A stretch of 64,000 nt of DNA from an uncultured Alphaproteobacteria bacterium (GCA_963777635.1 CAVZSB010000004.1:2096-66095); one strand, 5' to 3'; counted from the stretch's first letter, positions 12,148 through 31,861 are shown. A program made the numbers and translations. Notes: generated by a model from the letters alone, not told the origin.

Positions 12148-13299
12148 CTAGGACGTCGTCAGATGAACGATGTCATTAAAAGTTGCAAATATCATCAACA
12201 TAAGAACGATCGCGAGACCGATGCGAAAACCCACCTCCTGAGCCCTTTCCGACAGCGGACGACCGCGAATAGCCTCAATACCATAGAACAAAAGGTGACC
12301 GCCATCGAGCAGCGGGATCGGAAAGAGGTTAAGAAGCCCGATCGATATGGAAAGGACGGCGGCAAGCTGGATGAGCGGAACAAAACCGAAACTCGCAACC
12401 TGCCCCGACATCTGCGCGATGCGGATCGGGCCACCAAGCTGGTTGGCCGCCTCGCGGCCGGAGATGACACCGCCGATGTAGCTCAGCGTGCGGTCAACGA
12501 CAGACCAGGTTTCCTGAACGCTCAGCCAAATGGCGTCGAGCGGAGCGACCGGGTGTAATTTCAGATCCTCCGGCGCCATCGAACGGCTTATGCCGAGAAT
12601 TCCGACGTGCTGCACATTGCCGAAATTGTCCTTGACCTCTTTGAGAGTCGGCGTCGCCTTCAGGACCTTCTCCGTCCCGTCACGCTCGATGGTGATCTCA
12701 AGCGCTTCTCCGGCGCTCGCACTCACAAAACGCTGCATCTCGGTGAAATTGTCGATGTGATGCCCGTTGATGGCGAGGACCACGTCACCGGGCATGAATC
12801 CGGCCTGCTCCGCCGCGCTGGCGGGCTGAACCGCGTCGACACGCGCGCTCATCGTCTGCTTGCCGTAGATCATGAAAACCCCGGCGAAGATCACGATGGC
12901 CAAGAGAAAATTCGCCAGCGGTCCAGCGACGACGATGGCCGCGCGCTTGGGCACGGGTTGGAACATGAAACTTTCAGCACGTTCCTGCGGATCCATGTTT
13001 GCACCGCGCGAGACGTCGGGCACGCTTGCCGCATTTTCATCGCCGAAAAACTTCACAAAGCCGCCGAGCGGGATGGCCGAGATCTTCCAGCGCGTCCCGT
13101 AGCGATCATTGAAGCCGACGATTTCCGGTCCGAAGCCGATAGAGAAGACCAGAATCCGCACTCCGCACCAGCGGGCGACGAGGAAATGACCGAGTTCGTG
13201 GAAGAACACGACAAGGCTGAGGACGAACAAAAAGGGAATGAGATAGCCCACGACGCCACCGCCGAGCGCATGCAAATGCGCCAATAGATTGGTCCCCAT
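12148..13299 (-). CDS. rseP: RIP zinc metalloprotease RseP
   Basis: HELGHFLVAR zinc motif, PDZ region and multiple TM segments. Start at MGTNLLAHL; the longer ORF prefix is Pro/Ser/Arg junk. Confidence 0.9.
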   Translation of the reverse strand: MGTNLLAHLHALGGGVVGYLIPFLFVLSLVVFFHELGHFLVARWCGVRILVFSIGFGPEIVGFNDRYGTRWKISAIPLGGFVKFFGDENAASVPDVSRGANMDPQERAESFMFQPVPKRAAIVVAGPLANFLLAIVIFAGVFMIYGKQTMSARVDAVQPASAAEQAGFMPGDVVLAINGHHIDNFTEMQRFVSASAGEALEITIERDGTEKVLKATPTLKEVKDNFGNVQHVGILGISRSMAPEDLKLHPVAPLDAIWLSVQETWSVVDRTLSYIGGVISGREAANQLGGPIRIAQMSGQVASFGFVPLIQLAAVLSISIGLLNLFPIPLLDGGHLLFYGIEAIRGRPLSERAQEVGFRIGLAIVLMLMIFATFNDIVHLTTS

Positions 13300-21586: not shown

Positions 21587-24500
21587 TTACAGCGCCTCGA
21601 CCGTCACCACGCCCGACACCGCCTTGATGGCGCCGGCGATCTGCGGCGAAACCTTGAAGCGTCCCGGCAGCTTCACCTCGACCTCGTTGCCGTTGCCGAG
21701 CATCAGCACCATCGACACTTCGCCGTCGCCGTGATCGGCGCCGCTGCGTCCGGCGGCAAGCTTGATCGGCTCGAGCCGCCGCGCCACGCCTTCGATCGGC
21801 GCATCGTCGCGCAAGAACACGCGCAAGCCCTTCTGCATTTTCGCCGCCGCCTGATCGAGCGGCTCGGCCGACTGGATGCGGGCGCGCACCTCGTCGCCTT
21901 GAACTTCGGCGGTGAGAAACAAAAGCACCGCCGTGCCGGGCTCCAGCAGATCGCGGTATTGCGCCAGGCCCTCCGCGAACAGCACCGCCTCGTAGGCGCC
22001 GCTCGGATCGGACAGGCCGATGATGCCCATCTTGCTGCCGTTCCTGGTGCGGCGTTCGGTGCGCGCGACGACCGTGCCGGCGACCCGGCCGGCGCTGGCG
22101 CCGGCTTTCACGGCGCGGGAAAATTCGACCCACGACTGAACGCGCAGCCGCTTGAGCGCGGCGGCATAGTCGTCGAGCGGATGACCGCTGAGGAAAAAGC
22201 CGACCGCCTCGTATTCGCGTTGCAGGCGCTCCGCCGGCAGCCACGGCTCGACCGCCGGCAGCGCGATCGGGACCGGCGCCGCCGCGCCGCCGAACAACTC
22301 CGACTGGCCGATCGCGGCATCCTCATGGGTACGCTGCGCGGTGGCGAGCATGGTGTCGATGGCCGCAAAGGCGCGCGCGCGATTCTTCTCGATCGCGTCG
22401 AAGGCGCCGGCGGCGACGAGGCTTTCCAGCACGCGCCTGTTCACCGCGCGCGGGTTGGCGCGGCTGGCGAAATCGGCAAGATCGGCGAACGGCCGCTCGC
22501 CGCGGGCGGCAAGCAGGCTTTCGACCGCCTGCCGGCCGACGCCGCGCAACGCCGCCAGCGCGTAGTGAATGGTGTTGCCCGCGACATCGAACTCGACACC
22601 CGAGCGGTTGATCGAGGGCGGCTCGACCTTGATGCCGAGCCGCTCGGCCTCGGCGCGGAATTCGGCGAGCTTGTCGGTGTTGCCCATGTCGAGCGTCATC
22701 GAGGCGGCCAGGAATTCGACCGGATAATTCGCCTTCATGTAGGCGGTCTGATAGGCGACGAGCGCGTAAGCCGCGGCGTGGCTCTTGTTGAAGCCGTAGT
22801 CGGCAAAGCGCTCCAGCAATTCGAAGATCGCTTCGGCGTGACCGGACTCGACGCCGCGCGCCACGGCGCCGGAAACGAACCGGTCGCGCTGGGCCTTCAT
22901 CTCACTGCGAATCTTCTTGCCCATGGCGCGGCGCAGCAGATCGGCTTCGCCGAGCGAGTAGCCGGAGAGCACCTGCGCCGCCTGCATCACCTGTTCCTGA
23001 TAGACGATGACGCCGTAGGTCTCGCGCAGGATTTCTTCGAGTTTCGGATGGATGAAATCCGGCAGCTCGGTGCCGTGCTTGCGCGCGCAATAAGTCGGAA
23101 TGTTCGCCATCGGGCCCGGCCGGTAGAGCGCGACCAGCGCGATGATGTCCTCGAAGCGGTCGGGACGCATGTCGATCAGCGCCCGCCGCATGCCCGCGCT
23201 TTCCACCTGGAACACGCCGACCGTCTCGCCGTGCGCCATCATCTCGTAGGACTTGGCGTCGTCGAGCGGCAGGTTGGAGAGATCGATGTCGATGCCGCGC
23301 CGCTTGACGTGCTTCACCGCGAGATCGAGCACGGTGAGCGTTTTCAACCCCAGAAAGTCGAACTTCACCAGTCCCGCCGGTTCGACCCATTTCATGTTGA
23401 ACTGGGTCACCGGCATCAGCGATTTCGGATCGCGATAGAGCGGCACCAGTTCGGCCAGCGGCCGGTCGCCGATCACGATGCCGGCGGCGTGGGTCGAGGC
23501 GTGGCGATGCAATCCTTCAAGCTTTTGCGCGATGTCGAATGCACGCTTGGTGACGGGGTCGCGATCGCGCTCGGCCTGCAAGCGGGGCTCGTCCTCGATC
23601 GCGCGGCCGAGCGTGACGGGATTGAGCGCATTCTGCGGCACGAGCTTGCAGAGCTTGTCGACCTGCCCGTACGGCATCTGCAACACGCGTCCGACATCGC
23701 GCAGCACGCCGCGCGCCTGCAAGGTGCCGAAGGTAATGATCTGCGCCACCTGCTCGCGGCCGTATTTCTCCTGCACGTAGCGGATCACTTCATCGCGCCG
23801 GTCCTGACAGAAATCGATATCGAAGTCCGGCATCGAGACGCGTTCGGGATTGAGGAAGCGCTCGAACAGCAGCCCGAAGCGGATCGGATCGAGATCGGTG
23901 ATGGTCAGCGCGTAGGCGACCAGCGAACCCGCGCCGGAGCCGCGGCCCGGACCGACCGGAATGCCCTGCGCCTTCGCCCACTGGATGAAATCGGCGACGA
24001 TGAGGAAATAGCCGGCGTATTTCATGCTCTCGATGACGCCGAGCTCGAAGGCGAGCCGGTCGTGATAGTCCTCGGCGGTGTGGCCGGGCGCGATCGGATG
24101 CCGCGCCAGGCGGCGCTCCAGTCCGGCGCGCGCGGCGCGGCGCAGTTCCTCCGCCTCGTTGGCCTGCGCCGTCGTCTTGCTTCCGCTCAGCCCGGAGAAG
24201 CGCGGCAGGATCGGCGCCAGCGTGCGCGGGCGGAACGCGCAGCGTTCGGCGATTTCGACCGTCGCCGCCAGCGCTTCGGGCAAATCGGCAAACAACGCCG
24301 CCATTTCGGCGCGGGTCTTGTAGCGATGCTCGGGCGTGAGCTGGCGGCGCTCGCCGTCGGCGACCAGCCGGCCCTCGGCAATGCACAAAAGCGCGTCGTG
24401 CGCTTCGTAATCCTCGCGGGCGGCGAAGAACGGCTCGTTGGTGGCGACAAGCCGGATGCCGCGCGCATACGCCAGATCGATCAAAGCCGGCTCGGCCAGC

Positions 24501-25063
24501 CGCTCGGCCGGCATGCCGTGGCGCTGCAACTCGATGTAGAGGCGATCGCCGAACAGCCGTTGCAATTCCTCACAGCGGGCGACGGACAGAGCGCCCTGCC
24601 CGGCGGCGATCGCGGTGTCGAGCGGACCGTTCGGTCCGCCGCTGAGCGCGATCAGGCCGTTGGCGGCTTCCGCCAGCCACGACAGCTTGATGTGCGGCTG
24701 CTCCGACTGCTCGGTATCGAGATAGGCGCGCGAGCAAAGCCGCAACAGGCTCCGGTAGCCCTCCTCGCGTGCGGCAAGGAGCACGATCCGCGCAAATCCC
24801 TGCCCCATCGCGCCGGGGCGATTGTCCTGGTCGCCGAAATCGACGCCGAGCGCGCAACCGACAATCGGCTGGATGCCGGCGCCCGCCATTTTCTCGGAGA
24901 ATTCCAGCGCCCCGAACATGTTGTCGGTGTCGGTGAGCGCCAGCGCCGGTTGCCGGTCCTTCTTCGCAAGCTCCGCCAGCCGCGCGATCGGCAGCGCGCC
25001 TTCCAGCAGCGAATAGGACGAATGGACGTGCAGGTGCACGAAACCGGGGGTCGCGGCGGCCAT
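21587..25063 (-). CDS. dnaE: DNA polymerase III alpha subunit
   Basis: 1158 aa. PHP domain N-terminus (FVHLHVHSSYSLLEGA), DnaE core and an OB-fold C-terminus. Confidence 0.97.
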   Translation of the reverse strand: MAAATPGFVHLHVHSSYSLLEGALPIARLAELAKKDRQPALALTDTDNMFGALEFSEKMAGAGIQPIVGCALGVDFGDQDNRPGAMGQGFARIVLLAAREEGYRSLLRLCSRAYLDTEQSEQPHIKLSWLAEAANGLIALSGGPNGPLDTAIAAGQGALSVARCEELQRLFGDRLYIELQRHGMPAERLAEPALIDLAYARGIRLVATNEPFFAAREDYEAHDALLCIAEGRLVADGERRQLTPEHRYKTRAEMAALFADLPEALAATVEIAERCAFRPRTLAPILPRFSGLSGSKTTAQANEAEELRRAARAGLERRLARHPIAPGHTAEDYHDRLAFELGVIESMKYAGYFLIVADFIQWAKAQGIPVGPGRGSGAGSLVAYALTITDLDPIRFGLLFERFLNPERVSMPDFDIDFCQDRRDEVIRYVQEKYGREQVAQIITFGTLQARGVLRDVGRVLQMPYGQVDKLCKLVPQNALNPVTLGRAIEDEPRLQAERDRDPVTKRAFDIAQKLEGLHRHASTHAAGIVIGDRPLAELVPLYRDPKSLMPVTQFNMKWVEPAGLVKFDFLGLKTLTVLDLAVKHVKRRGIDIDLSNLPLDDAKSYEMMAHGETVGVFQVESAGMRRALIDMRPDRFEDIIALVALYRPGPMANIPTYCARKHGTELPDFIHPKLEEILRETYGVIVYQEQVMQAAQVLSGYSLGEADLLRRAMGKKIRSEMKAQRDRFVSGAVARGVESGHAEAIFELLERFADYGFNKSHAAAYALVAYQTAYMKANYPVEFLAASMTLDMGNTDKLAEFRAEAERLGIKVEPPSINRSGVEFDVAGNTIHYALAALRGVGRQAVESLLAARGERPFADLADFASRANPRAVNRRVLESLVAAGAFDAIEKNRARAFAAIDTMLATAQRTHEDAAIGQSELFGGAAAPVPIALPAVEPWLPAERLQREYEAVGFFLSGHPLDDYAAALKRLRVQSWVEFSRAVKAGASAGRVAGTVVARTERRTRNGSKMGIIGLSDPSGAYEAVLFAEGLAQYRDLLEPGTAVLLFLTAEVQGDEVRARIQSAEPLDQAAAKMQKGLRVFLRDDAPIEGVARRLEPIKLAAGRSGADHGDGEVSMVLMLGNGNEVEVKLPGRFKVSPQIAGAIKAVSGVVTVEAL

Positions 25064-25229
25064 AGGGTTAGATACTCGCGGGAAGCGATTCTGCGAGCCG
25101 CGAGGATGCGGCCTGGCCTGCCGCGCTGTCCATGCCGGCGCGCACGGCCGTCACCGCTGCGCACAGGATGTTTGGCCCAAATGTCTGGCCTCAAGCCGTG
25201 GTTTGCCCGCGCGCGATAGCGAACGCAGC

Positions 25230-25311
25230 GCCACTCCAACGCTCAAGCCACCAAACTCAGACCACCCCAAGCATCAGACCACGCCAAGAACTAAGCCACA
25301 CCAAGAACTTG
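25230..25311. repeat. Five degenerate tandem units (14-18 bp), plus-strand consensus GCCAC-N-CCAAG(A)AC-TCA
   Basis: Units at 25230..25245, 25246..25259, 25260..25276, 25277..25294 and 25295..25311, read directly from the sequence. The array overlaps the last codons and stop of the 32-aa ORF. Confidence 0.7.
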
Positions 25312-25389
25312 CGCCCAGACGGCGACCATGGCCAGAAACAGGCTGATCGATGCGAGCGCCAGAGCCTCCTCGGCAACCGCGCGAACCAT
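25291..25389 (-). CDS. 32-aa hydrophobic small protein MVRAVAEEALALASISLFLAMVAVWAQVLGVA (candidate SOS-induced membrane peptide)
   Basis: ATG at 25387..25389. It is preceded by SD GGGGGAGAG (25395..25403) with a 5-nt spacer. One predicted TM helix follows a short charged N-terminus. The promoter and LexA boxes lie immediately upstream. The ORF lies inside the junk 77-aa ORF of the track. Confidence 0.55.
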   Translation of the reverse strand: MVRAVAEEALALASISLFLAMVAVWAQVLGVA

Positions 25390-25411
25390 GATGTCTCTCC
25401 CCCTCGCTATA

Positions 25412-25452
25412 GAACGAAAAGAGAACATAGTTCTTATATTGTTCGGAGTCAA
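25412..25452 (-). promoter_or_regulatory. sigma70-like promoter with two inverted alphaproteobacterial LexA (SOS) boxes
   Basis: Minus strand reads TTGACT(-35, 25447..25452)-N17-TATGTT(-10, 25424..25429). GAAC-N7-GAAC (25430..25444) fills the spacer. GTTC-N7-GTTC (25412..25426) overlaps the -10 and the predicted TSS. Confidence 0.65.
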
Positions 25453-25573
25453 ATGGGGGGCGACGTTACACGTTACGGCCCCAACCTCAGCATGTAGATT
25501 TGGGGGTGCGCAACGAATGCGCACGTCCCAATAGCCGATCTATTCCGGGTCTTGCTGGCTTGGGATCGCCCTA

Positions 25574-26413
25574 ATGGACGGCCGGGGGATGCTGAAGGGC
25601 TATTTTGACGATAGTGGCACACACGGACATGCGCCGATTGTGCTCGTGGGAGGAATTTGCGGCACAGAATGGCAAATACGGTCTTTGGAAAAGGCGTGGC
25701 GAAAGCACATCGAGCGTCCTCTTGATGGACTCAAAGACCGGGTTAGGCGCTTTCACGCCTATGGATGCCATAACAGCAAGGGCGACTTTACGGGGTGGAC
25801 TAGAACAGAAACTGACCTTTTCTGGCATCAACTACAAACGGAAATTATCAAATCGCACGTCGCCGCTTACGGGATCGCTTGCGTACGCCAGGATTGGGAT
25901 GACCTGATAACAGGTCATGCTCGAACCATCTACGGCAATGCAGAGCAAATGTGCATCAAAAATTGCTTCGTGAAAGCGCTCGCGTGGGCTTCGAATAGTA
26001 CCTTTGACCCTGTCATGACTTTCGTTTTTGACAATAGACCCGCCAGTATTCAGAACGAAGCGCAGGTTGTTTCGAACACTTTTGAAACCGGGAGACCCGG
26101 CGAAACGCCTCAAGTAGCAGGCACCGCGTTTCGGAGCTCGTTCCAAACATTACCGTTGCAGGCCGCCGATTTAATTGCTTGGGAACTTTATCAGTTTGCC
26201 AACGATATTTTTAGCGGCGCTGCTGACATGGGCAAACCCAACCGGAAGCAACTGCAATATCTGATGCAGAATATGACTTTCGAAGCTCAATTCGCGCGAC
26301 GCGAAAGTATCAAACATATTGCGGAACACGTTGAAAGCCGCGATCCGGAGATGATTGCTGCCGCCGCGGACTATTTTAGGAATTCGATTGCTTCTTATCC
26401 TTCGAAAGGGTGA
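25574..26413 (+). CDS. DUF3800 domain protein
   Basis: N-terminal YFDDSGTHG (DUF3800 D-x-SG motif) and C-terminal LPLQAADLIAWELY (LQxADxxA motif). Visibly lower GC than the flanks. The start could instead be the ATG at 25589. Confidence 0.7.
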   Translation: MDGRGMLKGYFDDSGTHGHAPIVLVGGICGTEWQIRSLEKAWRKHIERPLDGLKDRVRRFHAYGCHNSKGDFTGWTRTETDLFWHQLQTEIIKSHVAAYGIACVRQDWDDLITGHARTIYGNAEQMCIKNCFVKALAWASNSTFDPVMTFVFDNRPASIQNEAQVVSNTFETGRPGETPQVAGTAFRSSFQTLPLQAADLIAWELYQFANDIFSGAADMGKPNRKQLQYLMQNMTFEAQFARRESIKHIAEHVESRDPEMIAAAADYFRNSIASYPSKG

Positions 26414-26577
26414 CGTTCTTGAGGGCCTGCCCTAAGACCTCTTTAACATCCGCGCCGACTTCCTCGACGGGTTCGACGAACCGATACAATTCTTGTGGAT
26501 CGGCGGTTTTGTCGACTTGCAGTGCAAGGCACCAACCATATCTCAGTTATGAGGGTTAGCTGTGGAGGAATTTTCAA

Positions 26578-26802
26578 ATGGATAAACGATTAGAAATCAG
26601 CCCGCGCGAAGCGGAGGAACTTATCAACGGAATGGGTCGCATCGCCACGGTTCACCTACATGACGATGGTCTCGTAACCGCGACTGCAATAAGTGTCGAT
26701 CCGGCCGACCCGCGAATCCAAAACGAAGTTGACAATTTTCTGTACGAAATTCAGCGGAAGTACCGTATTGTTAAGAAGGTCGCCAAAGCTACTTGGCGAT
26801 AG
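26578..26802 (+). CDS. hypothetical 74-aa protein
   Basis: GGAGGA SD 8 nt upstream of the ATG. Same strand and low-GC block as the DUF3800 gene. No family recognised. Confidence 0.5.
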   Translation: MDKRLEISPREAEELINGMGRIATVHLHDDGLVTATAISVDPADPRIQNEVDNFLYEIQRKYRIVKKVAKATWR

Positions 26803-26817
26803 GAGCGGAAACCGACA

Positions 26818-26899
26818 ATGGCCTCTATCGCAACCGCTCCGAAGGACGGGCGCGAAATCACGCTCTGGGCGAATCTCGCTCCGCTCGATCGCTATGGAT
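26818..26899 (+). pseudogene. small ORF (MASIATAPKDGREITLWANLAPLDRYG...) interrupted by the IS3-family element; remainder at 29621..29685
   Basis: Removing 26900..29617 plus one GAT copy restores a 48-codon ORF ending in TAA at 29683..29685. The TAPKDG N-terminal motif recurs in phage-associated small proteins (from recollection, not searched). Confidence 0.45.
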
Positions 26900-26927
26900 T
26901 GGAGTGCGCCCCTAGAGCCGGACGGGA

Positions 26928-27221
26928 TTACGCGGCGGTTTTGACCGTCTGCCGGGCGTGAACTTCCTCGAACCGGGCCGGGCTCAGATAGCCGAGCGCG
27001 GAATGGAGTTTGCGAGTGTTGTAAACCTCATCGATAAAGCGGGGAAGATCGGCAGTTACATCCTCGAAGGTTTCGTAGTCCATCAGATAGACAGCTTCGA
27101 CCTTCAGTGTCTTCATGAAGCTCTCTGCCTTGGCATTGTCGTAGGGGTTCCCGCGCCGCCCCATCGAACCAACGAGGCCGTGGTCGGCGAGCAGGCCACG
27201 GTAGAGCTCGGACGCATATTG
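26928..27221 (-). pseudogene. IS3-family transposase OrfB, C-terminal fragment (rve domain end)
   Basis: ...[42 protein letters not shown]... continues directly from ...HHSDRGSQ at 28685. Confidence 0.88.
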
Positions 27222-28681
27222 GGTGGATTCAAACGTTCGTCGCAACGCGATCCTTCTCGGCTGATAGAAGTAGCCGGTCAAGCAATTCTGCGGGCGTTTT
27301 CCAATCAAGCGTTTTGCGGGGCCGTGAGTTGAGGGCGGCTGCTACTGCGGCAATCTCGTCAGCGCTGTGCATGCTGAGGTCGGTGCCTTTGGGGAAGTAC
27401 TGCCGCAGCAGCCCATTGGTGTTCTCGTTTGTGCCGCGCTGCCATGGGCTGTGCGGATCGCAGAAGTAGACTTGGACGCCCGCGTCGATCGTTAGGCGTG
27501 CGTGCTGAGCCATCTCAGCTCCTTGATCCCAAGTCAGCGACCGACGCAGGTGCTCAGGCAAGGTGATGATCGTGTGCGTGATGGCGTCGCGCACCGCGTC
27601 GGCACCATGTCCAGCGAGGGCGGGTCCGTTCTTCACGCGAGCGTCGCGGCCATGACCCGGCATGCGCGGCAGGTGCAGCAACAGAGTGAATTGAGTCGTG
27701 CGCTCTACCAATGTCCCGATCGCCGAACTGTCAAGACCCAGGATGAGATCTCCCTCCCAGTGCCCTGGCACTGCGCGATCAACTGCTTCCGCTGGACGTT
27801 GGCTAATCATGATCTCGGAAGAGATGAAGGCCTTGCCTCGTCCGCGCGTGCGCGTCCTCGGTATCCGGAGCGGTCGCCCGGTGCGCAAGCACGCCGTCAG
27901 CTCGCGCCGCAGCGCGCCTCGTCCTTGAACGAACAGCGCTTGGTAGATGGCTTCATGGCTAATGCGCATGGTCTCATCGTCCGGGAAGTCGACCAAGAGT
28001 CGGCGGGCGATCTGTTCTGGGCTCCAGGCGTTTGACCAGCGCCGATCTTTTCGCCGCCCATGTCGACGGCCTTTCCAGGACACGGCCGGGCCGGGCACGA
28101 GAGTGCCGCTCGGAGTGACGACGATGCCAGCCAATCGCTCCTCCACATAGGCTCGCAACGCCGCATTCTCCGCAAGCTTCCCCGGTTTTGGCCGACGAGC
28201 GGCTCGTTCGGCGTGCCATTGCGCTGTTGTGGCGCGGTACTCCAGACCGCCGCTTCGAGTGGCAGCATTGCGCCGCAACTCCCGTGAGATCGTCGATGCC
28301 GCCCGCCCAAGCCGACGAGCAACCTCCTGCATTGAATAGCCCTGCGCGCGAAGGACTGCGATTTCCTCCCGCTCTGCAAACGAGAGATAACGTCCCGAAA
28401 GCGGTTTGGCCGATCGTCCAAACATCGCCGGTGATATTCCCCCTGCTGTCCGGAACCATCGTGTCCCTACCGCCGGCGGCACACCGGCCGCTAGCGCAGC
28501 ATCCCCGCTCTCCAAGCCTATCGCGATTCCGGCCCAGAAGCGCCGCCGCTCATCTCGTCCTGCCACGGCGGGTCGACCTGGTGAGAACAATGGCGCCCGC
28601 CCAGACCGATCCGAACGCCGCTTCCGAAGTTTCATCGCAACCCCCTTCATCAGAGCGTTGCGACCACCACTTGAGTTCGCC
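27222..28681 (-). mobile_element. IS30-family insertion sequence (1460 bp) nested inside IS3 orfB
   Basis: Imperfect ~27-bp terminal IRs: GGTGGATTCAAACGTTCGTCGCAACGC at 27222..27248, and GGCGAACTCAAGTGGTGGTCGCAACGC as reverse complement of 28655..28681. A 3-bp target duplication TTG is present at 27219..27221 and 28682..28684. Confidence 0.88.
27229..28635 (-). CDS. IS30-family DDE transposase
   Basis: [27 protein letters not shown] and [28 protein letters not shown] motifs. Start preferred at the second ATG (28633..28635), which has an AAGGGGG SD; the first ATG is at 28648..28650. Confidence 0.9.
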
Positions 28682-29188
28682 TTGCGAGCCTCGATCCGAG
28701 TGGTGAACGCAGCCCTTGGGGGGCTGCCGCGCTCGGATGGCCGCCTTCAAGGCAGCAACGGCTAGGCGCGCGTCGATTGAGCGGCTGATCGCATAGCCGA
28801 CCACCCGACGTGACCAGGCATCGAGGACGGCGGCCATATAGACGAAGCCGGCGGCGATCGCGATGTAGGTGATATCTGCCACCCAAACCTGGTTCGGGCC
28901 GTCAAGGATCCTGTGACGGGCGAGGTCGGGGAAGATCGGGCCGTCGTGGTCGCTGTCAGTCGTGGTTACGAACCGCTTGCGGCGCTTGGGTTGCAGGTCG
29001 TTCTCGCGCATGAGACGGCGGGTTTTTTTGGAATTGACCACTATGCCGCGATGACGCAACTCGGCGCCAACCCGGCGATAGCCATAGGCTTCGAACTCAT
29101 CGCAGATCGCGATCATGGTCGTGACCAGCGCGGCGTCGTCGATCGGCAATGACGGAACGTCATAGTAGGTGGAGCGCGACAGGCCCAT
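28682..29188 (-). pseudogene. IS3-family transposase OrfB, N-terminal fragment
   Basis: ...VWVADITYI...AAVLDAWSRRVVGYA...HHSDRGSQ, then the frame runs into the IS30 end. Its ATG overlaps the orfA stop (ATGA at 29186..29190). The orfB frame stays open upstream, consistent with OrfAB frameshifting. Confidence 0.85.
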
Positions 29189-29538
29189 CAGCCGGCATCC
29201 TTCGGCGATGGAGAGGTCACGGGGCCGGTGATGACGGATGTACTCGCGCTTCTCGGCCGCGGCGTGCTTTTCAGAGCCCCCTTTAGAAACTCGATTTCCA
29301 GGGCCTGCCGACCGACCATGCGTTCAAGCGCCGCGATCTTTGCCTCGTAGTCCTGAAGCAGATCAGCCGCCTGGGCATCATCATCGAACGCCCCAGCTTC
29401 AAACTTCCGTACCCAGATTCTGATGAGGTTACGCGAGATGTCGTGTCTGCTGGCGAGAGCATACAGTGTCTCGCCCGCAATGAAGTCCTGGGCGACCTGC
29501 CGTTTGAACTCGACGCTGTGGGTGCGGTGCTTGGCCAT
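29188..29538 (-). CDS. IS3-family transposase OrfA (HTH)
   Basis: MAKHRTHSVEFKRQVAQDFIAGETLYALASRHDISRNLIRIWVRKFE..., followed by a leucine-zipper-like LEIEFLKGALK. Confidence 0.88.
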   Translation of the reverse strand: MAKHRTHSVEFKRQVAQDFIAGETLYALASRHDISRNLIRIWVRKFEAGAFDDDAQAADLLQDYEAKIAALERMVGRQALEIEFLKGALKSTPRPRSASTSVITGPVTSPSPKDAG

Positions 29539-29681
29539 GGCTTCCATCCTCTGAAAAGCCCGGCAGCCCCGGTCAATTCCCAATCTGCAATCTGTCCACC
29601 GTCAGGGGCGCACTCCAGATTGGCTACCGGTCTAAAGGAAAATCGGCCCGGACCGCCATCCTCGCCTTCTCGACGAACTCC

Positions 29682-29912
29682 CTAACCCGCTTTCGCGGCG
29701 CGGATTTCCCGCTCAAGCTTTCGCTTCTTTTCCAACAGCTCGACAAGCCGGCCGCTCAATTCCTCGAACGCCGTAACGAAATCATTGTGCTCGGGGTCGG
29801 TCCAGGCGTGGCCTTCGCCGATGGCCCTTTGCCATTCTATTCGCACGGTTTCGGAAAGGTCCGCCAATTCCCTGGAAACTGCGGCCAGTTGGTCTTGCAA
29901 GGATTTTGTCAT
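29682..29912 (-). CDS. hypothetical 76-aa coiled-coil protein
   Basis: MTKSLQDQLAAVSRELADLSE...LLEKKRKLEREIRAAKAG. No family recognised. Start chosen at the internal Met. Confidence 0.4.
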   Translation of the reverse strand: MTKSLQDQLAAVSRELADLSETVRIEWQRAIGEGHAWTDPEHNDFVTAFEELSGRLVELLEKKRKLEREIRAAKAG

Positions 29913-30049
29913 GCGATGGAATATGCCCGCTTCGGCCGGGCTGGCAAGCCTTTGCGCGGCGTTATTCAAACCGACCTGCCTGCCCAAAGCGGTGCGGAAA
30001 ACTGATTGTGCCTCAGTTTGGATTTGATCGGAGCGATTGGCCCAGCCTT

Positions 30050-30427
30050 TTACCGGAACGCCGATCTTCTAATGCCGGTGTAAACAGCGAAACCAGCCGC
30101 AATGGATGTTCCTAGAACAATTGCTGCGGTTTGCCTGAGAGTTTCGACTGGATAGAGGCCGGTCATGACCATGGAAATGCGCCCGGCGACGACGACAACA
30201 AGAAACGTAATGGCCAATATCGCCGCGCGCCGTTTCATGGTGAGAATGAGAAAACCGGCCGCGGCGTAGAGAGCACCAACGATTGCACCAGCATAGGCAG
30301 AGACCGCGCCCTGAGCGGTATGAAGGCCGAAAAAGTTGTGGGTGAAGCCCGTAACAATCTCGGCAAAACCAAAGACAATCATCAGCGATGCGATGATCGT
30401 CATATCGCATGGGCGGCGTTGGTCCAT
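30050..30427 (-). CDS. hypothetical integral membrane protein (about 4 TM segments)
   Basis: Hydrophobic segments IIASLMIVFGFAEIV, AGAIVGALYAAAGFLIL, AILAITFLVVVVAG and AIVLGTSIAAGFAVY. Start at Met48 (30427) or Met56 (30403) of the track ORF. Confidence 0.5.
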   Translation of the reverse strand: MDQRRPCDMTIIASLMIVFGFAEIVTGFTHNFFGLHTAQGAVSAYAGAIVGALYAAAGFLILTMKRRAAILAITFLVVVVAGRISMVMTGLYPVETLRQTAAIVLGTSIAAGFAVYTGIRRSAFR

Positions 30428-30506
30428 AGCGCTCGTCGGTCCGCAATGTGGGCCAGGCGCGACGGCGCTCCGGCTTACCGTTGAATTCAGACTGATCACT
30501 ACCGGA

Positions 30507-30615
30507 AAACCAAGCCTTCCATGCAACGCGGTTCCGCTGCGACAGATACGCATGGCTCTGCAAACCAAGGTTTCTCAGCAACGCGGTTCAGCCGGCACAA
30601 ATCCGCATGGCTTGT
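30507..30615. repeat. Two directly adjacent ~54-bp tandem copies (about three quarters identical by eye)
   Basis: AAACCAAGCCTTCCATGCAACGCGGTTCCGCTGCGACAGATACGCATGGCTCTG at 30507..30560 versus AAACCAAGGTTTCTCAGCAACGCGGTTCAGCCGGCACAAATCCGCATGGCTTGT at 30562..30615. Confidence 0.7.
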
Positions 30616-30827
30616 TCATCTTCCGCTCAGGAACGCCGGGGTAATCAGGGCGTTGTGCAACGGTCGCGTTCAGCTCTTACGATGATTTCCATCATGCGAA
30701 GTGGCCGGATCGCGGTCGTCGCCAGCCGTGGCTGGGGCGAGCCACGCAGTTGCTGGCGTTACGTAGTTTGGCGTTATGTAGCCGTGTGTTTTCACGCTGT
30801 TCCCTCACCCCCAAAAACGAGGCTCTC

Positions 30828-31043
30828 ATGCGAAAAATCACCCTGACTTTGGCTGCCGCGGCGTTGGTGCTCGGCTCGCTGGCCGTAGCGAATGCCCAGA
30901 CCCAGGGCGCTTCGAAGCTCAACGCGCAGGCGCAGAACGCGACCCCGATCGTGAAGTTTGCCGGATGCCGCGGCTGGGGCCGATGCCCCCCCGGCCGTTT
31001 CTGGGCCTGCGGCCCGCGCGGCTGCTTTTGCCGCTGGTGCTGA
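30828..31043 (+). CDS. secreted Cys/Trp/Arg-rich small protein (71-aa precursor, about 48-aa mature)
   Basis: GAGG SD 5 nt upstream. Sec signal MRKITLTLAAAALVLGSLAVANA|QTQ. C-terminal CRGWGRCPPGRFWACGPRGCFCRWC has 6 Cys, 5 Arg and 3 Trp in 25 residues. A hairpin terminator follows. Confidence 0.65.
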   Translation: MRKITLTLAAAALVLGSLAVANAQTQGASKLNAQAQNATPIVKFAGCRGWGRCPPGRFWACGPRGCFCRWC

Positions 31044-31075
31044 TGAACGCTCCGAAACCGGAATGATCGTTGTTC

Positions 31076-31103
31076 GAGGCCGCCTCCGGGCGGCCTCTTT
31101 TTT
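31076..31103. terminator. Rho-independent terminator between the convergent Cys-rich peptide gene and lolD
   Basis: GAGGCCGCC-TCCG-GGCGGCCTC stem-loop followed by TTTTTT on the plus strand. Confidence 0.75.
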
Positions 31104-31126: not shown

Positions 31127-31861
31127 TCAGTCGAGCTCGACGACCGTGCCGTCGCGGATGGTCACGCGGCGATCCATTTGCGCCGCAATGTCGAGGTTGT
31201 GGGTGGCGACGACGGCGGCGACGCCGGAAGCGCGCACCAATTCGCCGAGCGTGGCAAAGACCCGTTCGGAAGTGCGGACATCGAGATTGCCGGTGGGTTC
31301 GTCGGCCAGAAGAATCCGCGGCGCGTTGGCGACGGCGCGCGCAATCGCGACGCGCTGCTGCTCGCCGCCCGATAATTCCGCCGGCCGATGCGTCAGGCGA
31401 TCCTTGAGCCCGAGATACGACAGCAATTCGGCGGCGCGGGTTCGCGCCTTGTCCTTTTTAAGGCCGCCGATCATCTGCGGCAGCATCACGTTTTCCAGCG
31501 CCGTGAATTCCGGCAGCAGGTGGTGGAACTGATAGACGAAGCCGATGTCGGTGCGGCGGATGCGGGTGCGCTGCATGTCGGTCAGGTGCGAGGTGGCGAC
31601 CCCATCGATAAAAACTTCGCCGGAATCGGGATGTTCGAGCAGGCCGGCGATGTGCAGGAGCGTTGATTTGCCGGCACCGGACGGCCCCACCAAAGCCACC
31701 GACTGGCCGGGCCAGACCGCGAGCTCGACGCTCTTGAGAATGTCGAGCGTGGTGTCGCCCTGCCGGAAGCGCCTGGATATCTCGTGCAGGAGCACGATCG
31801 GGCGAGCTTCACCGGCGGCAGTCGACGGCGCAGACTCCATGCTGGTCGTTATCTCATCCAT
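31127..31861 (-). CDS. lolD: lipoprotein-releasing ABC transporter, ATP-binding protein
   Basis: [37 protein letters not shown]. Adjacent to the LolC/E permease gene. Confidence 0.9.

Follow-up and report, generated by a model that had tools for sequence, protein, structure and literature searches.

SidA, the textbook SOS division inhibitor of the Alphaproteobacteria, is an inner-membrane protein of 29 aa; it binds FtsW and blocks division, and in our searches it is named only via a Caulobacter-type model. In Caulobacter, sidA (CCNA_02004) is adjacent to dnaE (CCNA_02003; CC1926), both genes appear in the SOS list, and 40 min of MMC treatment increases sidA by a log2 value of 3.4 and dnaE by a log2 value of 1.18. 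The sidA promoter is the only entry with two LexA boxes in S6 Table of PMC12700426, and its LexA ChIP peak exceeds those of all other 'early' promoters (PMC12700426). The sidA transcription unit is listed as 3557 bp (PMC12700426); as this is too long for a 29-codon gene alone, the unit must be taken to include dnaE. Our literature search found no SidA counterpart described outside Caulobacter.

Several other small, single-pass membrane proteins are induced by damage and block late division i.e., DidA of Caulobacter (71 aa, activated by DriD) and YneA, SosA, ChiZ and DivS, the last four being SOS inhibitors of Gram-positive bacteria. In contrast to the peptide described below, these proteins are larger and have extracytoplasmic domains, and they are unrelated to it in sequence and context; DidA is, moreover, SOS-independent, whereas the gene described here has a LexA-box promoter. 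SOS-type control of a hydrophobic peptide is also found in the TisB/IstR-1 system of E. coli (TisB, about 29 aa), although its LexA operator differs in type from that of the present locus.

The locus lies in a 64-kb stretch of DNA from an uncultured alphaproteobacterium, which was analyzed as a whole and is referred to as the window. All elements of the putative transcription unit are on the minus strand. The -35 hexamer, TTGACT (25447..25452), was recognized both by a promoter scan and in loci aligned on the LexA box, and is followed by a 17-nt spacer made up of a 2-nt CC and LexA box 1, GAACAATATAAGAAC on the gene strand or GTTCTTATATTGTTC on the plus strand (25430..25444). The -10 hexamer, TATGTT (25424..25429), consists of the TAT between the two boxes and the first GTT of LexA box 2, GTTCTCTTTTCGTTC (25412..25426), which overlaps the -10 edge and the predicted transcription start. 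The start itself is a prediction of the promoter scan and falls approximately 25-30 nt before the ATG. A Shine-Dalgarno sequence, GGGGGAGAG (25395..25403), precedes the ATG by 5 nt, and the ORF that follows (25291..25389; ATG at 25389, TAG at 25293..25291) comprises 32 codons and a stop, encoding the putative membrane peptide MVRAVAEEALALASISLFLAMVAVWAQVLGVA. TTGACT-17-TATGTT was the only sigma70-like site that the promoter scan detected in 24500..26500. An earlier note on this DNA had described the promoter, both boxes, the Shine-Dalgarno sequence, the 5-nt spacer and the 32-codon ORF, and each was found in its place; the distances that it gave, 130 bp to a DUF3800 gene and about 350 bp to dnaE, are likewise correct.

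The two boxes were examined by count and by weight matrix. GTTC-N7-GTTC occurs twice in the 64-kb window, with both copies at this site, 3 nt apart and in opposite orientation. Shuffled versions of the window yield about two copies anywhere, so that the count is unremarkable and it is the adjacency of the copies inside one promoter that stands out. On a matrix derived from 32 Caulobacter boxes at promoters bound by LexA (PMC12700426, S6 Table), boxes 1 and 2 are the best and second-best scoring positions of the window, both strands considered, with 23.1 and 20.0 bits, respectively. The Caulobacter training boxes have a median of 19.2 bits on the same matrix, and the next matches in the window reach 17 bits at most. 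Three LexA-like matches of 14.6-17.0 bits at 12286..13239 were attributed to chance, as they fall inside a membrane zinc-metalloprotease-like CDS (HELGH; HExxH). The site shows the hallmarks of an alphaproteobacterial LexA operator i.e., the GTTC-N7-GTTC direct repeat, a T-rich centre and a position over the core promoter. The peptide gene is very probably LexA-regulated.

For comparison with related genomes, the DnaE N-terminus was scanned against one genome per GTDB species, which gave 80 loci from Xanthobacteraceae, Pseudolabrys, Bauldia and other Hyphomicrobiales MAGs, with identities of 69-86% to the DnaE N-terminus of the window. Given the DnaE relatives found, we place the window organism in an uncultured Xanthobacteraceae lineage. 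Both boxes are conserved in the related loci, where the double box lies about 250-560 bp upstream of dnaE, the distance being about 250-480 bp in the majority of loci. The full operator, GAAC-N7-GAAC-N3-GTTC-N7-GTTC, is perfect in 72 of 80 sequences (79 loci and the window), with the remaining eight having a 4-nt gap, one altered half-site or a shorter spacer. Among 70 loci aligned on the LexA box, cTTGAC is kept in the same register, and in the box-aligned loci the TAT between the boxes is almost invariant, with an information content equal to that of the box half-sites. Reading TAT and the following GTT as the -10 hexamer fits this conservation of TAT and cTTGAC at the level of the half-sites.

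By tblastn, the peptide ORF was recovered in 79 of the 80 loci, the exception being a locus whose sequence is cut off at 256 nt upstream of dnaE. In every one of the 79 usable loci, the ORF is intact and precedes dnaE; it has exactly 32 codons in 77 of them and an ATG start in 78 (79/80 when the window is included). All 80 DNA sequences of the ORF are distinct. Mean pairwise diversity at codon positions 1, 2 and 3 is 0.29, 0.13 and 0.54, respectively, the pooled pN/pS is 0.31 and the median pairwise dN/dS is 0.17. Stops interrupt the other two frames over the ORF in 67 and 22 loci. A GGAG, GAGG or AGGA core is present 4-18 nt before the start in 67/80 sequences, and a purine-rich core in 79/80. 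Because the ORF is intact in 79/79 loci, is most variable at third positions and has so low a median dN/dS, we regard it as almost certainly a real gene, evidently under purifying selection.

The arrangement of operator, promoter, ORF and dnaE is thus conserved. Boxes, Shine-Dalgarno sequence and ORF occur together in 79 of 79 usable relatives, as the earlier note had suggested examining, and substitutions in the relatives are biased to synonymous sites. That note had also named conserved boxes beside a broken ORF as grounds for giving up its reading; no relative that retains the boxes has a broken ORF. Its central proposal, a LexA-repressible promoter ahead of a single-helix peptide of the SidA or TisB type, is supported by these comparative tests as far as sequence can speak to it.

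When the 14 closest sequences are aligned, column identity amounts to 0.74-0.85 in the operator and 0.87-0.92 in the ORF. Right after the ORF stop codon, identity falls to 0-0.4 with many indels, recovering chiefly within the final 140 nt or so before dnaE, where most 20-column windows have values of 0.56-0.82.

The predicted peptide has a GRAVY of 1.68, 19-residue hydropathy windows of up to 2.11 and no charged residue from position 10 to position 32, a profile that fits one transmembrane helix. Residues M1, A9, L12, L17, F18 and W25 are invariant across the family, with R3, E8, S14, A23, Q27 and V28 being near-invariant; S14, F18, W25 and V28 share one face of the helix. Only one copy of the gene is present in the window.

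Likeness to SidA at the sequence level was judged via the NCBIfam model NF033228 (div_inhib_SidA). This model was the best NCBIfam match of the window peptide, which it covers over its full length with 11.8 bits and an E of 0.18, a score that lies far below the curated cut-off of 35 bits and does not make the peptide a SidA member by sequence. Of the 80 family members, 13 matched NF033228 (best E, 0.0069), and the only other NCBIfam model matched by the family was a SepX/GlpR transmembrane segment. Among 150 control peptides, reversed or shuffled, there was no match to the SidA model. Since control peptides do reach E values of 0.011-0.018 against other small hydrophobic families, the match to SidA is not significant alone; it is suggestive because SidA was expected beforehand from the context. 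There was no Pfam match to the peptide even at an E of 10, and Rfam gave nothing relevant.

Taking context and sequence together, the window gene is best read as a LexA-repressed positional counterpart of Caulobacter sidA, and it is probably a distant orthologue of that gene. The first of these readings rests on the position upstream of dnaE, the two-box promoter and the single helix of some 30 residues. As in Caulobacter, the gene shares a strand with dnaE and is its immediate upstream neighbour, and here too the two genes would be co-transcribed; its promoter has two alphaproteobacterial LexA boxes; and the 32-aa product has the size and the single hydrophobic helix that characterize SidA. 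The two systems also differ. SidA has 29 residues and a Caulobacterales host, whereas the window peptide has 32 and belongs to the Hyphomicrobiales/Xanthobacteraceae. The spacer to dnaE is longer and variable at our locus, as compared with what appears to be a few tens of nt in Caulobacter, and dnaE has a separate conserved upstream block. Furthermore, the boxes of Caulobacter sidA lie 49 and 15 bp from the CDS, so that the gap between them may differ from that in the window.

We consider it rather probable that the peptide acts as a SidA-like division inhibitor. For this locus we infer LexA binding, induction by damage, membrane insertion and a division target, and events might unfold as follows. 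In undamaged cells, LexA would sit on both GTTC-N7-GTTC boxes and exclude RNA polymerase. Upon DNA damage, RecA-stimulated cleavage of LexA would free the promoter, and the short leader with its strong Shine-Dalgarno sequence would allow translation of the single-helix peptide and its insertion into the inner membrane. There, by analogy with the action of SidA on FtsW/FtsI/FtsN, the peptide would block the late divisome and so delay division until repair is done. With no terminator in the way, some transcripts would run on into dnaE, for which a modest rise may be expected.

A LexA-controlled peptide could instead be aimed at a different target, for example by modulating a transporter, a protease or envelope synthesis, and would then have only its position and regulation in common with sidA. 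Many small membrane proteins are modulators of larger membrane proteins, and the match to the SidA model is below threshold. Short hydrophobic peptides can also converge, and a common position with sidA is no proof of a common target. Against this stands the coincidence of three independent features of sidA, namely the dnaE position, the two-box promoter and the helix of about 30 residues, together with the fact that SidA is one of only two NCBIfam models touched by the family. We therefore hold a different target to be unlikely, with a SidA-like action on division the favoured reading.

The earlier note had left the choice between a division inhibitor and a toxin undivided. A toxin of the TisB kind would be an SOS-induced type I system in which the peptide depolarizes the inner membrane and leads to dormancy or persistence, held in check by an antisense RNA. 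The peptide is in the same size class as TisB, it has a single hydrophobic helix behind a promoter predicted to be LexA-controlled, and it has a few conserved polar residues (R3, E8, Q27). The other components of such a system are, however, not in evidence. There is no promoter-like site on the opposite strand in 24500..26500 and no Rfam match; both flanks of the promoter-ORF unit are unconserved, which leaves no conserved gene for a partner RNA alongside; and the predicted leader is short with an exposed strong Shine-Dalgarno sequence and no significant fold, whereas that of TisB is long and structured. An antisense RNA encoded entirely within the ORF would escape these criteria. In addition, the gene is single-copy and fixed before dnaE in all relatives, and no match was found in 72,556 plasmids or 50,697 phages; a fixed core-genome site by dnaE with no mobile copies again sets it apart from TisB/IstR-1. 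As none of the testable hallmarks of a type I toxin were found, and as Caulobacter sidA has the same dnaE position and a two-box promoter, the inhibitor half of the earlier proposal is clearly favoured, and we rate a toxin as improbable.

A broader proposal would treat the peptide and dnaE as an ancient alphaproteobacterial SOS module, its two genes staying together because their functions are linked, in which the peptide acts on replication or Pol III, or else as a depolarizing toxin resembling TisB, and is not simply an FtsW inhibitor. We give this, too, a low probability relative to a SidA-like division inhibitor.

The relationship of the peptide gene to dnaE bears on a further alternative. 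The dnaE gene (21587..25063, minus strand) encodes a DNA polymerase III alpha subunit of 1158 aa with the Pfam domains PHP, DNA_pol3_alpha, finger, HHH_6 and OB, and lies on the same strand as the peptide gene, 227 nt downstream. No terminator was detected between the two genes in the window, and terminator-like sites were found there in only 3 of 76 relatives; this absence of terminators suggests co-transcription of the peptide gene and dnaE. Read-through of SOS transcripts into dnaE is accordingly plausible in our analysis, in line with the Caulobacter precedent. The earlier suggestion of SOS control of dnaE is sustained to this extent, although dnaE also has a conserved upstream block of its own.

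This block (25064..25190, minus strand) is non-coding, is located directly upstream of dnaE and has a column identity of about 0.56-0.82 over most of its length. It shows no consistent reading frame across loci, so that its conservation is at the DNA level, and it probably represents a housekeeping promoter and leader belonging to dnaE itself. The block contains, in this order, GGGCCAAACATCCTGTGCGCAGCGGTGA, ATGGACAGCGCGGC and CCGCATCCTCGCGGCTCGCAGAATCGCTTCCCGCGAG, and it includes a GANTC site (GAATC) and the inverted repeat CTCGCGG-N16-CCGCGAG. A second small ORF ending just before dnaE ('..ILCAAV..MDSAA..ASI*') was considered and rejected, since its frame is interrupted or shifted in relatives.

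Between the block and the peptide gene lies a non-conserved spacer (25191..25290, minus strand), which has no terminator and contains degenerate repeats of the end of the ORF. Behind the final 17 nt of the ORF, TTCTTGGTGTGGCTTAG, come three to four degenerate copies, TTCTTGGCGTGGTCTGA, TGCTTGGGGTGGTCTGA, GTTTGGTGGCTTGA and GCGTTGGAGTGGCG (25225..25310); these 14-17-nt repeats of the last codons conform to TTCTTGGyGTGGyyTrA. The copies are common only to the window and to contigs 98% identical to it, and the array behind the stop codon was not scored by tandem repeat finder (TRF). In P0223, a related database protein of 44 aa, the reading frame continues into such a repeat.

On the same strand upstream of dnaE and with no intervening terminator, the ORF might conceivably serve as a cis-acting uORF or leader peptide that tunes dnaE and whose product is irrelevant. 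However, purifying selection extends along the entire peptide, with F18 and W25 invariant, the spacer that separates the ORF from dnaE varies and has many indels, and in relatives the ORF ends some 130-420 nt short of HLHVHS, a conserved motif close to the dnaE start. RNA folding of the ORF-dnaE region likewise revealed no significant structure (z-score, +0.67). We thus regard a cis-acting role as very unlikely compared with a functional membrane peptide. Finally, the idea that a chance ORF sits beside a LexA operator serving only dnaE, for which one could cite the shortness of the ORF and the abundance of spurious ORFs in GC-rich genomes, is refuted by the comparative sequence data (a fixed-length ORF intact in 79/79 loci, codon periodicity, a dN/dS of 0.17 and a conserved Shine-Dalgarno sequence) and deserves next to no credence.

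The distribution of the family was further explored in public sequence data. A phmmer search against 1.84 billion representatives matched 98 clusters, all of the same peptide family at identities of at least 60%, and revealed no bridge to more distant families. The exact 32-aa peptide has already been gene-called on at least four metagenome contigs, and its variants fall into clusters with as many as 168 members across the NCBI, JGI, ENA and Logan data. The peptide, described as unlisted in the earlier note, is therefore unlisted as regards function, whereas its gene has already been called as a 32-aa hypothetical protein in these four collections. All named family members are labelled 'hypothetical protein' in public data. 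Many gene callers start too far upstream and produce 'hypothetical proteins' of 70-136 aa (e.g., P0015, P0036 and P0100, among P0001-P0120), in which the N-terminal extension comes from translation of the promoter and LexA operator and bears the recurring motif E-[HQ]-x-x-N-Y-V-x-x-x-F. A search with four concatenated family peptides returned only such upstream-extended miscalls of the same gene, again labelled 'hypothetical protein'.

The family is thus widespread, being present in 79/80 sampled genomes and on hundreds of metagenome contigs from soil Xanthobacteraceae and their neighbours, and in current gene calls it is either 'hypothetical' or given a false upstream extension that runs through the operator. 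The sidA-dnaE arrangement would accordingly seem far older and more widely spread than annotation indicates. For the Hyphomicrobiales, whose SOS division checkpoint is missing, the peptide offers a concrete candidate. What is new here is an unnamed peptide family in the sidA slot, a finding about annotation and evolution and not a new mechanism.

Metagenomes were also scanned for operators of related design. The two published LexA boxes of Caulobacter sidA gave no matches in the metagenome scan. The pattern GAAC-N7-GAAC-N4-KTTC-N7-GTTC, with its 4-nt gap, returned 120 loci (L085-L204), many of them matching on both strands; two of the 120 carry dnaE, and both of these belong to the same peptide family. 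The fixed positions of this pattern are palindromic, and many of its matches are on unrelated contigs. The matches probably include unrelated GAAC-N4-GTTC contexts. The central GAAC-N4-GTTC resembles the Gram-positive LexA (Cheo) box, and we presume that many of the matches may be of this type.

Upstream of the promoter, the window differs from its relatives. A low-GC DUF3800 gene (25574..26413, plus strand) is followed by an IS30-like transposase (27229..28650, minus strand), a pair of IS3-like transposase ORFs (28550..29583, minus strand) and the ancestral neighbour, a lolD-like ABC ATPase gene (31127..31861). The latter is the first of the next conserved genes, the others being an ORF of permease size and an aminoacyl-tRNA synthetase of class II bearing the anticodon-binding domain common to the Gly, His, Thr and Pro enzymes. 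Because most related genomes have the ABC ATPase gene at a distance of about 0.1-2 kb from the promoter, the window carries an insertion of approximately 5.6 kb (25471..31100), which has a lower GC content and holds the DUF3800, IS30-like and IS3-like genes.

Three metagenome contigs share 98% identity with the window across the peptide gene and dnaE and lose all similarity upstream of about position 25471 i.e., 19 nt beyond the -35 hexamer. Since these contigs diverge at that point, DUF3800 is best regarded as a recent neighbour that lies outside the unit. The suggestion that the operator might also place DUF3800 under SOS control consequently finds no support: the gene is part of a strain-specific insertion, homology with the 98%-identical relatives begins only at about 25471, no promoter-like site was detected on its strand and the boxes are 130 bp from its start codon. 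Other relatives have different inserts at the same place, for example a transposase in L205 and a gene encoding 271 aa in L081, and from these differences the region just upstream of the -35 hexamer looks like an insertion hot spot.
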